From positions 416,001 through 480,000 of the forward strand of contig JBBCJC010000003.1 in assembly GCA_037189525.1 (NCBI GenBank): a stretch of 64,000 nt of DNA, written 5' to 3'. Position numbers: made by a program. The stretch comes from Gemmatimonadales bacterium. GTDB taxonomy: Bacteria > Gemmatimonadota > Gemmatimonadetes > Gemmatimonadales > GWC2-71-9. This document shows, piece by piece, positions 23,101 through 29,100 of the stretch (the first letter of the stretch is position 1; each line of letters starts with the position of its first letter).

Positions 23101-26100
23101 GAGCGGCCGGCCAACCCGGCGTCGAACGAAGGCGCCTGGGCCCAGAATCGTCGCGATGAGTTCGAAATCACGAGCGGCGGCGCCCGCCTGGTGAGACCGC
23201 GGTGAACCGACTGTTGCTGGTGGCCCTCGCGGCCGGCCTGACCGCGGGATGCGCCACCAAAGGCTCAGTGCGCCAGGTCGAGACGCAGGTACTGGTGCTC
23301 CGCGCAGAGACGGCGCGCCAGGACTCGGTGCGGGCTGCGGAGCTGGCGCGCATCATTCGCCTCCAGCAACAGGCCATCGATTCACTCAACGCGTCACGTC
23401 AGGCCATCCGGGTGCTGGAGGCCCGGGTAGGCAGTGACCTGACCGACGTCCAGCGTCAGCTGCTGCAGATTCAGGAGTTGTCGGGCCAGAGTCAGCGGCA
23501 GCTGTCGCTCCTCAAGGCGCAGCTGGATGCCCGTGCCGAGGCGCAGTCGCTGGGGCCGGTAGATTCGACCCGCCCGGTCGATTCGGCGGCCCCGCCGCCC
23601 GCGGCCTCGGCCGAGCAGATGTATGTCGGCGCATTGCAGCAGTATCAGCGGGGAAGTCCGGGCGTGGCCCGCCGGGCGTTCCTCGAATTCCTGCAGCAGT
23701 ATCCGACCCATCCGAACGTGCCGGATGCGATGTACTGGGTGGCGGAATCGTTCGAGGCCGAGTTGCCGGATACGGCTATTGCGCGGTTCCAGCAGCTCCA
23801 TGCGAAGTTCCCCCAGTCCCGGCGCTCACCGACCGCGTTGTACAAGATCGGTTACGTGCTCGAGACGGTAAAGAAATCGCCGGCCCAGGCTCGGGCGGCG
23901 TACCAGCGGCTGGTGACCGAGTATCCTCGTTCGGAAGATGCCGACTTGGCCAGGGCGCGACTCGAGAGCCTCAAACCCTAGGTCCGGGTTGGTTGGATGG
24001 CGCGGTCCAGTGGAGAAATGCCGTTCCTCGATCATCTCGAGGAACTCCGATCGCGATTGCTCAAGGCGGTTCTCGCCCTGGTCATCGCGATCGGTATCGG
24101 CATATGGGTAGTCGACCATTTTCAGCTGGTCGACATCCTGCAGCGCCCCATCCTTCCCCTGCTCGAGGGACGCCATCTCGTCATTCAGAGCCCGACCGAG
24201 CAGTTCATGATCCTGCTCAAACTTGGCTTCATCGTCGGGCTGGTGCTCGCGTCTCCCGTCATCATCTGGCAAATCTGGGCCTTCCTGTCGCCGGCCCTCT
24301 ACTCGCGTGAAAAAAAGGCCATCGTTCCGGCCCTGTTCGTCGGCGTGGCGCTCTTCATCACCGGGGCCACCCTGAGCTTTATCTACATCGTGCCCCAGGC
24401 TCTGCGCGTGCTGCTCGGCATGGGGCCTGGCACCTTCGAGATGCTGATCACCTGGCGTTCCTACTTTGCCTTCGTGATGCAGGTGGTGCTGGCGATGGGG
24501 CTCTCGGCCGAGTTACCGCTGCTCATCATCATGCTGGCGGTGCTCGGCGTGGTCACACCGTCGATGCTGGGCCGGTTCCGGCGCTTTGCGATCGTGCTCT
24601 CCTTTGCCGGCGGGGCCATCCTGTCACCGGGTGGGGATGTCTTCTCGATGGTGCTGATGACGGCGCCGTTGATCGTGCTGTACGAGGTCGGCTATCTCGG
24701 AGCCTGGATCGTTCACAAGCGGCGGACCCGGGCGGCGGCCGCCGCGGCGTCGGCCGCGATGTTCGTCTGGTTCCTCCTGCCGGCGCCGTTGGAAGCGCAG
24801 CAACCGCCTCCACCTCCGCCCCGACAGGCCCAGGACACTACCCGGCGGCAGGCAGGCGACTCGGCCGCCGCCAAGCGCATGGGACTCCCGTCGGCGCCGA
24901 AGCGGTCGTTTCCGGCGGCGGATTCGCTGTTGCTCGACCTGCAGGAACTCGAGGGATACGAGATTACCCGGTACCGGGCGGACACGGCGCAGGTCAGCCC
25001 GCGGGACAAGGCGGTTCAGCTGGGCGGCAACGCGATGACCGAGCGCACCGACGCAGTGCTCGAGGCGGATCGCATCTTCTACCGCGAGGGCGATTGCCGT
25101 TTCGAGGCGCAGGGCGAGCCGCATCTCTTCCAGCAGGGTACCGTGGTGGTCGGTCGCACCGTGTTGTACAACACCTGTATCGAGCGCGGACTGGTACAGG
25201 ACGGCCGGACCAGCTTCCCGCAACAGGGAGCCAACTGGATCGTCAGCGGTCACATCGCGATGGACTCGACCGCCAGGCGCGTCTTTGCCAGCGCGCGCGA
25301 AATCACCAGCTGCGATCTGCCCGATTCGCACTATCACTTCCGATCCAAGGAACTGCGCTGGGTCGGAGGCTCGACCATGGTGGCGCGTCCAGCCGTGCTC
25401 TACATCCGCGATGTGCCGATTGCCTGGGTGCCGTTTCTCTTTCAGGACACCAAGCGGGGCCGTCGCTCGGGGATTCTGATTCCCGAACTCGGCTTCAACG
25501 ATATCGTGCGCCCGAGTCGCAACTACAACCGCACGGTGAAGAACCTCGGATACTATTGGGCGGCGAGCGAAAAGGTTGACCTACTCGCCCGCTTCGACTG
25601 GTACTCGAATCGGTACATCGAGTTCGGTGTCGAAGGGCAGTATCGCTGGATCGATCAGTTCATGCGCGGCGCGGTGAGCTTTTCCCGGGCGCAGGAAATC
25701 GGCGGCTCGACCAACACGCGTGTCGTCTGGAATCACAACCAGACCTTCAGTGTCACGACCAAACTGAACGTCAGTCTCGACTACTCGACCAACTCGTCGA
25801 TCATCCGGCGGAACTCGATCGATCCGCGGATGACCACCCAGCAGATCCGAAGTTCCGCCAACCTGAATCGCCAGTTCAGTTGGGGCAACATGGCACTCGG
25901 TGGTACCCGAACACAGAATGTCACGGACGGCAGCGGCCGGATGACGGCGCCCAGCCTAACGCTGTCGCCCAAGCCGATCGACTTCGGCTCGGCGGTAACC
26001 TGGTCGCCGGACATCAATTTCACCAACGACCTCGCCTTCAAGCAGCCGATGCCGTCGGTGCTCGTGCCGCGGGGACCCGGCGGAATCGTCGATACGCTGG

Positions 26101-29100
26101 CAGTAACCGGCGGGAGCCGATTGAGCCGGTTCAGTATGAACACGCCGCTCCGCATCGGCAGCTTTCAGTGGACCAACAGCGTCAGTCTGATCGACAGCGA
26201 CTCGACCGGGCTTCGTGAGGAACTGATCACGGTTCCGAATGAGAGTACAGAAGACCCGACCGACTCGGTCACCATCCGCCGGGTGCGCTCCGGTGGGTAC
26301 GGCAGCGAGTTCGATTGGAACACCGGGATCAACTTGCCGATTCTCTTCCGCACCTCGTGGAAGATCACGCCGACGCTGGGGATCACCAACACGACGTCTC
26401 AGGCGCCGTTCGCGGTGCGCAATGCGCGCACGGCGGGCGAGTACGTCCGCCAGGGCAAACGGTTCCAGTTCGGTCTGTCGGCCGCGCCGACGTTCTACGG
26501 ATTTTTCCCGGGCATCGGGCCGTTGGACCGAATTCGTCACACCGTGTCGCCGTCGATCAGCTACAACTATAGCCCGGCGGCGGACATCCCGATCGAGTTT
26601 GCCCGCGCCATCACGCCGGTCGGGCAGCCGCTGGTGCTGCGCAGCATCCCGACCCAGTCGATCAGCCTGACGCTGAACCAGAATTTCGAGGCCAAGACCA
26701 AGCGGCCGGCGGGTGACACGACCGATACGCGCGTCCGGAAGATCCGCCTGCTGAGCATCAGCACCAGCGGTCTCGCCTACGATCTCGAGAAGGCCAAGTT
26801 GCCGGGCCGGACCGGCTGGTCGTCGCCGACGCTGAGCAACTCGATCATGAGCGATCTGGTGCCGGGGCTCAACCTGTCGATGACGCACGATCTCTTTGCC
26901 GGGGCGTTCGATCCCGCGACGGGCCGGGTAGGGGCGTTCGACAGCAGCACCGCGCGATTCAGCCCGTATCTGTCGGGGGTGACCGCCAGCTTCTCGCTGA
27001 CCGACGGCACTTTCCGGTCGATCGGTCGCTTGCTTGGCTTGGTTTCGGACGACGATCCGCCGGAGCAGCAGCAGCGCCAGGCGTCCGTTCCCGGGGCGCC
27101 CACCACGGTGCCCGGGCAACCGCAGCAGCAGTTCGGCATGATGGATGACATGCGGCGGGGGACGGGCTTTACCAGCAACCAAAACTTCGTGCGCGGACAG
27201 CGGGGCTTCAACGCCAGCGTCAACTACACCTTGAACCGGACTCGTCCGATTCCGGGGGTGGCGGAGGTGCCGAGCCGCAGCAATCTGTCGCTCAACACGA
27301 GCTTTGCGCCGACGCAGTTCTGGCAGGTGAGTTGGAACACGCAGTACGACGTGACCAATCGGACCTTCGAGGCGCAGCAGGTCAATCTGACCCGCGATCT
27401 CCACGACTGGCGGGCCACCTTCTCGTTCCTCCGGTCGCCCAACGGGAACTTCTCGTTCTCGTTCCTGATCACCCTGATCGACCTGCCCGATCTCAAGTTC
27501 GACTACCGCCAGAGCTCGATTCAGCCCTGAGCACTCGGGGCGGGGCGAGCGGACCGGCCGGCCGGGGTGGTCAAGTCCGGCCCGTTCCATGCCGATCGTG
27601 AAAGGGATCGACCGCCCCGGCTCCCGGACGGCTCGGATTGGCGGTGCCTTGCCCCGGTCCTTCCCGATGGCCTATCTTAAGCGCTGGCAAGGTGTTGCTT
27701 CGCTTGGTGCCCCTCACCCGCGAGCCGGATGAATCTCGATAAGCTCAAAGAATCCGCGCGGAAGTACGAGCAAAACGGCCAGTGGCGCCAAGCCATTGAC
27801 GTTTACAAGAAGGCATTGCGCGAATTCGAAGAGTCGGGCGAGGGAGTCCTGGACCCGTCGCTGTACAATCGCATCGGCGATCTCGAGATGCGGGTCAACG
27901 ACACCAGCGCGGCCATCCGGGCCTACGAGCAGGCCTCCGATCTCTACACCGAGCAGGGTTTCTTCAACAACGCCATCGCGCTCTGCAGTAAGATCCTGCG
28001 TGTCAATCCGGGCCGCACCGCAACCTACCTCCGCCTGGCTCAGCTCAACGCCCGCAAGAACTTCGTCGGCGATGCGCGGAAGAATCTGACCGAATACATC
28101 GAACGGATGACGGCGCTGCATCACCCCGCTGAGGCCGTCGACGCCGTCAGGATCTTCGTCGGGCAGTGCGCCGAGAATCCTGATATCCGGGCCATGCTGG
28201 TGGAGTTGCTGCGAGGCGGCTCGTTCGATCCGTCGATGCGGGAGCCGTTCGACCAGCTGATTCGTGAGCTGGAACGCCAGGACACCCCGGACGAGGACGA
28301 CGCGGGCGACGGAGAGGTCGCGGTCGACACCGATGCCGCGCGCCGCGTGGACGCCGCCTCCGGGCTGGTCTTTCTGGATCTGGAGGGCGGCCAGGCACGG
28401 GACACGGGCTACGTCAGTCCGGTCGAGGGACTCGAAGTCATCCACCAGGAGCAGGAGCCCGAAGAGCCCTGGCGCCAGGATACCGACCGCGTCGACGGCT
28501 TCGAGTACACCGGTCTCGACCCGGTTGATACCGAGATCGGGGCTTCGGTCGAGTTCGTGACCGAATCGGCCTTCGAGGTGGGTGAGCCGCTCGATCTCGA
28601 AGGGGAGGACGCCGACCCGCTCGATATCGATTCGTATCCGAGCGTCGAGCTGGACGAGGCATTGGCCGCAGCCAGCGGGGATTCCGAGGTGGAGTCCCTC
28701 GACGAAATCGCCCTCACTCCGACCGCCGGACTCGAGGTGCTCGAGCCGATCGATCTGGAGACGACTCCCGAGGTCGAGTTGCCGCTCGAAGAGGGCGAGG
28801 CGCTGGCGGTCGAGGTGGATCTGGACCTCGACACCGACGAACCGCCGGAAGCAGCCGGCGACCTCGTCTTTCTGGTCGAGAGCGACGACGTGGCAGCGCC
28901 AGCTGCGCAGGAGACGTCGCGGACGGATGGGCTGTCGTTCATCTCGGATGAAGTCGATGAGCCAGAGGCCGAAGCGGAGGCCGAACCGGCTCGGGATCTG
29001 GCGCAATTTGCCGAGGAGCAGGCCCGGGTCTTGTTGACGGTCGGCGACCGTACGGCTGGCATGGCGGCGCTCGACGAAGCGCTCCGCCAGTACGAGGGAT

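Follow-up and report, generated by a model that had tools for sequence, protein, structure and literature searches.

A tatC-lptD fusion gene behind the tol-pal cluster

The window analyzed here, a stretch of 64,000 nucleotides from a Gemmatimonadales genome, carries a tatC::lptD fusion gene at 23997..27530 on the plus strand, which encodes 1177 amino acids in a single frame without an internal stop. An alternative start is possible at Met8 (24018), which is preceded by GGAG. Pfam analysis of the product revealed TatC at aa 12 to 224 (197.5 bits) and LptD_2 in two stretches from aa 462 (130.9 bits); the curated models label it as TatC only, as an earlier note on this DNA had pointed out. Upstream lies the tolQ-tolR-tolA-tolB-pal-cpoB cluster (19489..23981, plus strand), and in most relatives examined cpoB precedes tatC. 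Downstream, genes for a TPR protein, a polyprenyl synthase, a DUF4321 protein, and a tatA/B-family protein follow on the same strand (27729..31471), the last of which (31184-31471) is the only tatA/B-family match in the genome. A promoter scan at the locus yielded no site on the plus strand, and terminator-like sites were not above chance (9 versus 7.4 by chance).

In the genome, which is 98% complete, the fusion gene is at once the sole TatC match and the sole LptD_2 match. Neither a classical LptD (PF04453) nor, using tblastn, a second copy of the TatC or LptD half was found in the genome, and the earlier note's claim that these are its only TatC and LptD homologues thus held. The same is true of its claim of one open frame: besides the 1177-codon reading frame and the Pfam matches, GC3 is high in the fusion frame over the whole gene length including the joint, and contigs from three other studies run across the joint with 0 gaps. 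All 10 named Gemmatimonadota records obtained come from metagenome assemblies, which would suit an assembly error. However, independent contigs cross the joint, 97 of the family's 110 genomes have the frame open, and both halves are under purifying selection (dN/dS in 12 close pairs, 0.13 for TatC and 0.11 for LptD, with 0.38 for the joint). An assembly error or a decaying pseudo-fusion is refuted by these data, and its probability is practically nil.

The TatC and LptD halves

The TatC domain with its six membrane helices spans aa 8 to 240 (24018..24716, plus strand). It reaches 187.6 bits with TIGR00945, above the cutoff of 132.7, and the predicted model of this part matches Aquifex TatC 4b4a (E = 9e-11). 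Residues H13, E16, R18, F96, P99, and E105, which we take to be the signal-binding residues, are invariant in 87/87 fused TatCs; at the helix-4 Glu position, 79 have E and 8 have Q. Judged by sequence and model, fold and signal-binding residues are intact, and both are common to TatC of TatAC-type systems (Aquifex 4b4a, E. coli 9dzz). As in such systems, there is a single tatA/B-family gene. In contrast to the Aquifex and E. coli proteins, the fused TatC continues into a seventh helix at its C terminus and carries a passenger of 910 residues. AlphaFold placed helix 6 and the following signal in one continuous helix with falling confidence and no hairpin, and helix 7 was not packed against TatC. 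A crude Tat-signal pattern, applied without a control, matched 18 open reading frames in the genome.

The predicted mature LptD comprises aa 268 to 1177 (24798..27530, plus strand). Its predicted model (pLDDT 82) consists of a Pro-rich N terminus of low confidence, a beta-jellyroll at about aa 324-484, and a large beta-barrel at about aa 513-1174. In a Foldseek search, ranks 1 to 37 as listed were all LptD (best E = 4e-25), and a profile search matched LptD and LptA. Jellyroll and large barrel are shared with known LptD structures (8h1s, 9kn3, and 7omm; PF19838), whereas the LptD part of the fusion is larger, has no free N-terminal signal peptide, and is only remotely similar to its fold matches, with 11 to 12% identity. 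The partners of LptD are present as well: LptF/G matches were detected, and LptE, missed by the family scan, was found by tblastn with LptE of relatives (45 to 56% identity). Fold and partners (LptE, LptF/G) suggest that the LptD part inserts LPS; the similarity to LptD is remote and far below the NCBIfam cutoffs. The LptD equivalog model NF002997 gave 24.7 bits against a cutoff of 683, while Pfam LptD_2 was passed; since NF002997 is an enterobacterial model that does not cover the Gemmatimonadota lineage, the shortfall lowers the case for an orthologue by score, not for a protein that works like LptD.

The joint resembles a signal peptide

Between the two halves lie, all on the plus strand, the basic stretch KRRTR (aa 241-245, 24717..24731), which is the normal cytoplasmic tail of TatC and would serve as n-region of an internal signal, a hydrophobic h-region forming the putative seventh helix (aa 246-261, 24732..24779), and the c-region PAPLEA (aa 262-267, 24780..24797), after whose Ala267 signal peptidase I is predicted to cut. 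Scored by n-region, h-region, and the residues at -1 and -3, the joint shows the Sec/signal peptidase I pattern: a basic n-region, a short h-region, and small residues at -1 and -3. The site reads L-E-A|Q (267/268) and not AxA as claimed earlier. Leu at -3 departs from the textbook AxA.

We compared 88 such joints, which are relatives and not independent. The cut site was set at the first Gln beyond the hydrophobic stretch, so that Gln at +1 is built in; in 4 joints with QAQ it was shifted by two residues, onto the second Gln. Position -1 is small in all (A in 78, G in 8, S in 2) and -3 is A in 39, L in 36, and V in 7, while -2 varies freely among 15 residue types; one joint per genus (40) gave the same pattern. 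The genome background of A before Q is 11%. Thirty N-terminal signal peptides of the same genome, picked by a Q-anchored rule, carry A at -1 in 26 and L or A at -3 in 14 and 8, respectively. Separate LptDs (57 scored) likewise begin with such a signal peptide. Other natural seventh-helix TatCs differ, with a higher median hydrophobicity of the best 19-mer (2.27 versus 1.78 in the fusions) and [AL]xA in only 19 of 59, compared with 70 of 88 fusion joints. The arginine run, said before to be conserved in all fusions, is less strict, as an RR pair ahead of the hydrophobic stretch is missing in 9 of the 88.

The RR pair in the remaining 79 of 88 joints raises the question of a twin-arginine signal, with Sec releasing helix 7 and the cell's own Tat system, including TatC itself, moving the LptD part. 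The outline of the protein fits the Sec-Tat dual-targeted class as described in an excerpt of PMC5449189 (an even number of helices, N terminus inside, arginines, and one more helix), for instance the actinobacterial Rieske protein with its internal export signal after an even helix number, and a basic c-region residue is found in 24/88 fused joints compared with 8/57 split signals. According to the same paper, however, about 8 residues are needed between the preceding helix and RR, and the last helix is weakly hydrophobic (PMC5449189). Here, RRxF occurs in 0/88, the last RR lies at least 8 residues past helix 6 in only 2 of 79, and the fused helix is at least as hydrophobic as split signals (by the best Kyte-Doolittle 9-mer; the scale in that paper is delta-G). 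Unlike the Rieske protein, the fusion thus has no Tat motif, too short a loop, and no weakly hydrophobic helix. The same arginines also end unfused TatCs, whose tails are basic too (median of 4 R/K; RR in 50/68), and all outer-membrane proteins use Sec in the account excerpted from PMC13067283. We regard Tat export as extremely unlikely.

Alternatively, LptD might be made mostly from an internal start near the joint, or a programmed frameshift might free a short TatC, with no processing in either case. An in-frame ATG, GTG, or TTG does occur past helix 6 and ahead of the h-region in 57 of 88 joints, but there is none in the other 31, among them the gene at 23997-27530, in agreement with the note's view that a separate LptD start is unlikely. 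Moreover, the candidate codon positions are not conserved, a 4-base Shine-Dalgarno match is present in just 6/88, and two genes that lost the TatC part (in G233 and G025) kept the tatC start. As there is no stop after TatC, TatC must still be made as a fusion. For frameshifting, the 88 joints contain no slippery X-XXY-YYZ heptamer, the one signal class searched. The probability of this explanation is therefore very low.

Probable processing of a TatC-LptD precursor

The pattern of the joint makes it very probable that the LptD tail is exported by Sec and that signal peptidase I cleaves a TatC-LptD polyprotein, as the earlier note proposed with the seventh helix as internal Sec signal. Its reading, with cleavage deduced from sequence, gains from the -1/-3 pattern in 88 joints, the likeness to the genome's own N-terminal signal peptides, and the reversion of the joint to an N-terminal signal peptide in six lineages. 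One mRNA frame would yield the precursor, whose six TatC helices would be inserted into the inner membrane by Sec with the basic tail left in the cytoplasm, as in established TatC biology. The old signal peptide of LptD would then re-enter Sec as seventh helix and lead the unfolded chain into the periplasm. Signal peptidase I, for which the genome has two genes, would cut after Ala267; freed LptD would proceed to BAM and pair with LptE as usual, and TatC would retain a short extra helix and work with TatA. In E. coli, engineering a peptidase site behind the last helix of a polytopic protein serves to release its domain (excerpt of PMC5449189), and all outer-membrane proteins are stated to take the Sec route and to be cut at AXA (excerpt of PMC13067283).

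Most likely, the cell makes one TatC-LptD chain and splits it to serve both membranes, as the signal-like joint suggests. By analogy, it most likely works like the FbcH polyprotein but spans two membranes. FbcH of Bradyrhizobium japonicum is reportedly a cytochrome b/c1 precursor with a cleaved internal signal (Thony-Meyer, James, and Hennecke, 1991, PNAS 88:5001, cited in PMC6976685), i.e., one gene for two proteins with a polytopic inner-membrane protein first. In FbcH, the two joined parts are subunits of a single inner-membrane complex, whereas TatC and LptD belong to different machines and the second part is an outer-membrane beta-barrel; no homology is claimed, and cleavage is predicted here from sequence.

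It is unlikely that the precursor is cut slowly or never, with LptD held by TatC helix 7 during BAM folding or permanently, and equally unlikely that the uncut or partly cut chain bridges the periplasm as a tether between the Tat translocon and the LPS insertase. Such a tether is topologically possible because LptD has its N terminus in the periplasm, starting with a flexible Pro-rich stretch; fused h-regions are a little more hydrophobic than split signals (median of the best 9-mer, 3.02 versus 2.77), and the fusion is kept in most of the family (97/110). Yet an anchor needs no -1/-3 pattern, which is present in 88/88, and the fusion was undone six times within the family. The linker is of equal length in fused (median of 69, n = 84), re-split (66, n = 4), and TatC-deleted (70, n = 5) proteins, which leaves this alternative of the note without support. 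If cutting were slow or absent, one chain would run across both membranes and place the Tat translocon under LPS insertion sites, a link between Tat and LPS insertion set within the Tol-Pal operon. The functional tie implied by the note is weak, because the genes are already overlapping neighbors phylum-wide and the fusion was gained and lost repeatedly.

To our knowledge, descriptions of outer-membrane barrels have them synthesized with free N-terminal signal peptides. In a whole bacterial family, the sole LptD would here be produced as the tail of a polytopic inner-membrane protein. This would force it into Sec via the membrane-protein route and fix TatC:LptD synthesis at one to one. The fusion is a natural case in which to ask whether a large barrel can get to BAM by this route, whether signal peptidase I routinely processes internal signals, and whether TatC tolerates a seventh helix. 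Consistent with the note, a literature search of titles and abstract openings, with few subscription papers covered, gave no description of a TatC-LptD fusion, and the main text of the TatC survey PMC3827258, as far as accessible, contains neither "fusion" nor "fused." Naming by TatC only hides LptD in genomes that carry the fusion.

Distribution and history of the fusion

The fusion is present in 97/110 genomes of the same Gemmatimonadales family and in 4/136 genomes elsewhere in Gemmatimonadota, where tatC and lptD are usually adjacent and overlapping. These separate pairs (e.g., L053-L063, L137, and L150-L153) encode the same proteins in the same order, mostly behind cpoB, and their LptD has a signal peptide of the same style ending at Gln; they differ from the fusion by a stop codon between tatC and lptD. 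In 42 of 67 separate pairs, the start of lptD lies 4 bases upstream of the tatC end, and the fusion is derived from such an ancestral pair overlapping by a few bases. A search for long TatCs with one distant query, which is weak for other phyla, returned 1 TatC plus LptD_2 protein among 85 matches.

A rooted tree indicated at least 4 fusion and 3 re-splitting events. In the re-split genomes (G145, G110, and G046/G001), a new start overlaps the tatC stop and the same signal is kept. Three further lineages have lost the TatC part by deletion and carry a foreign tatC; the joint is now an ordinary N-terminal signal peptide, and in G233 and G025 an in-frame deletion leads from the old tatC start directly to the h-region and cleavage site. 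The fusion is probably nearly neutral, being tolerated since the peptidase would undo it. The repeated fusions, splits, and deletions illustrate how overlapping envelope genes can fuse at small cost when the signal peptide is retained. An apparent TAG within five matches of genus g16 does not lie at the joint, and all five are fused.

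Gene structure, integrity and distribution of the fusion

Analysis of the fusion gene upheld the earlier note's reading of a single open frame (window 23997-27530, + strand), which comprises 1177 codons with zero internal stops, and its joint is bridged without gaps by contigs of three other studies. Pfam places the TatC domain at aa 12-224 and the start of the LptD_2 domain at aa 462. Directly past TatC helix 6 lies a basic stretch, KRRTR (aa 241-245), followed by a hydrophobic stretch (aa 246-261) and, from reading the sequence of the joint, PAPLEA↓QQ. A genome-wide search also bore out that this gene is the genome's sole TatC and sole LptD_2 match. 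The gene is preceded by tolQ-tolR-tolA-tolB-pal-cpoB and followed by a TPR gene, a polyprenyl synthase gene, a DUF4321 gene, and the genome's only tatA/B-family gene. Hairpins of 13 pairs with T-rich tails (window 19337-19367 and 31549-31578) flank the tolQ-to-tatA region; the overall hairpin count does not exceed chance.

Both halves of the fusion are intact and under selection. The modelled structure of aa 8-297 matches experimentally solved TatC, and six residues (H13, E16, R18, F96, P99, and E105), which we take to be signal-binding positions, are unchanged in 87/87 fused TatCs. The model of aa 269-1177 (pLDDT 82) shows a jellyroll and a large barrel, with LptD as top fold matches (E 4e-25, identity 11-12%). 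In 12 close pairs, dN/dS was 0.13 (TatC), 0.11 (LptD), and 0.38 (joint). The same genome also encodes LptE, LptF/G, and, in two genes, signal peptidase I. Three cysteines of the LptD part (window 24798-27530), at aa 367, 394, and 439, are all located in the jellyroll and kept in 61 to 72 of 82 LptD parts.

Furthermore, we surveyed 250 other genomes of the phylum, with four marked unpublished omitted from all counts and conclusions. In the window's own family (f1, n = 110), 97 genomes carry the fusion, 4 have adjacent split genes, 6 no longer have TatC at the locus, and 3 are unresolved. The joint was read in 84 of the 97; the remaining 13 were scored by open-frame length and a stop-free match. 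The fusion is real and a clade trait rather than special to this genome, as previously noted. Outside f1, it occurs in 4/136 genomes (3/52 in family f2 and 1/4 in f4); elsewhere tatC and lptD are adjacent, out to the most distant families sampled, and the lptD start lies 4 bases ahead of the tatC end in 42/67 split pairs. Relatives with names are metagenome assemblies of Gemmatimonadota or Gemmatimonadales. One locus (L050; G185, contig C111) has two tandem tatC matches directly 5' of lptD, and in another (L125; G052) the TatC portion of the fusion is disrupted into two frames near the N terminus, through either assembly error or decay. Searches of an open-access literature library turned up no description of a TatC-LptD fusion, in agreement with the earlier note.

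Putative cleavage site of the joint and proposed processing

The joint carries a signal peptide motif. In 88 fusions, with the site called at the first Gln past the hydrophobic region (h-region; in four, the second Gln of QAQ was used instead), position -1 is Ala in 78, Gly in 8, and Ser in 2, and position -3 is Ala in 39, Leu in 36, and Val in 7, while 15 residue types occur at -2. The pattern was unchanged with one sequence per genus. Since Leu or Ala at -3 is also typical of the genome's own signal peptides, LEA is native style here and not the textbook AxA site claimed before. The distance to the site is 33 to 71 residues from helix 6 but a steady 13 to 20 from the h-region, as expected if the signal alone is under constraint.

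A separate start codon near the joint could also yield LptD, but is unlikely, as ATG, GTG, or TTG before the h-region is absent in 31/88 joints, including the window's, and just 6/88 have a Shine-Dalgarno match. Programmed frameshifting is improbable as well, with a slippery heptamer in 0/88 joints. Export of the LptD part by Tat is also hard to reconcile with the joints: RRxF occurs in 0/88, RR is missing in 9/88, and the loop is too short for the ~8 residues required according to a passage of PMC5449189. An uncut LptD that stays tethered to TatC is possible but unlikely: fusion has not lengthened the linker (the Pro-rich stretch after the site) relative to split forms, and the cleavage pattern is retained. 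Two observations count against the processing proposed below: the h-region of fusions is somewhat more hydrophobic than that of free signals, and the AlphaFold model shows helices 6 and 7 as a single helix. A separate group of TatCs (P0002-P0067 and P0070; 450-740 aa; Myxococcota or Deltaproteobacteria where named) served as a control. They also have a seventh helix, followed by a domain without Pfam match, and are apparently uncleaved; in the 59 of 67 that were scored, the helix is more hydrophobic and the motif mostly absent. Three other proteins of ~440 aa (P0078-P0080) combine TatA/B and TatC Pfam domains.

Judging from these sequences, the fusion probably both yields a processed polyprotein and had a near-neutral origin. 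The TatC part would be inserted via Sec, and helix 7 would re-enter Sec. Signal peptidase I would then cut after Ala267 and release LptD into the periplasm to fold on BAM with LptE, leaving TatC with a short extra helix. Such steps are supported in general by passages of PMC13067283, in which outer membrane proteins travel by Sec and are cut at AXA, and of PMC5449189, in which a peptidase site put behind the last membrane helix in E. coli is used and the domain released.

The working proposed here resembles that reportedly known for FbcH of Bradyrhizobium. The two are not homologous, and TatC-LptD, unlike FbcH, joins proteins of two membranes.

Gain and loss of the fusion

A FastTree phylogeny was built from the LptD portions of 161 rows that each had 600 or more aligned residues, with five rows from distant families as the root; it requires 7 changes of state, fused to split or the reverse. 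As the outgroups are split, parsimony on this fast tree implies a minimum of four fusions (base of f1, G177, G089, and G045/G225) and three re-splittings within fused clades (G145, G110, and G046/G001); formally, f1 may instead have had a larger number of fusions and fewer splits. The fusion is reversible: in re-split genes, the lptD start codon overlaps the stop that tatC has gained, and the signal peptide is a normal one. Three further lineages (genus g21, G031/G233, and G025) have lost TatC at the locus and have a stand-alone tatC elsewhere; in G233 and G025 a recognizable piece of the TatC N terminus remains in frame with the h-region and cleavage site. Joint and ordinary signal peptide are therefore interchangeable. 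Two near-identical genomes (L042 and L043, first 240 bases past cpoB) differ in their reading of the tatC remnant: in G233 the old start is in frame with lptD, whereas in G031 this reading frame is closed and lptD begins at an ATG farther on.

Six f1 genomes (G064, G169, G025, G224, G031, and G233; L131-L135 and L188) have a stand-alone tatC away from the fusion locus. The five placed in a tree form one clade nested inside f2 tatCs, which points to acquisition from outside f1 and would fit a horizontal replacement of the TatC in the fusion. Two genomes, G043 and G045, carry the fusion plus a second stand-alone tatC, possibly an intermediate preceding loss of the fused TatC part.
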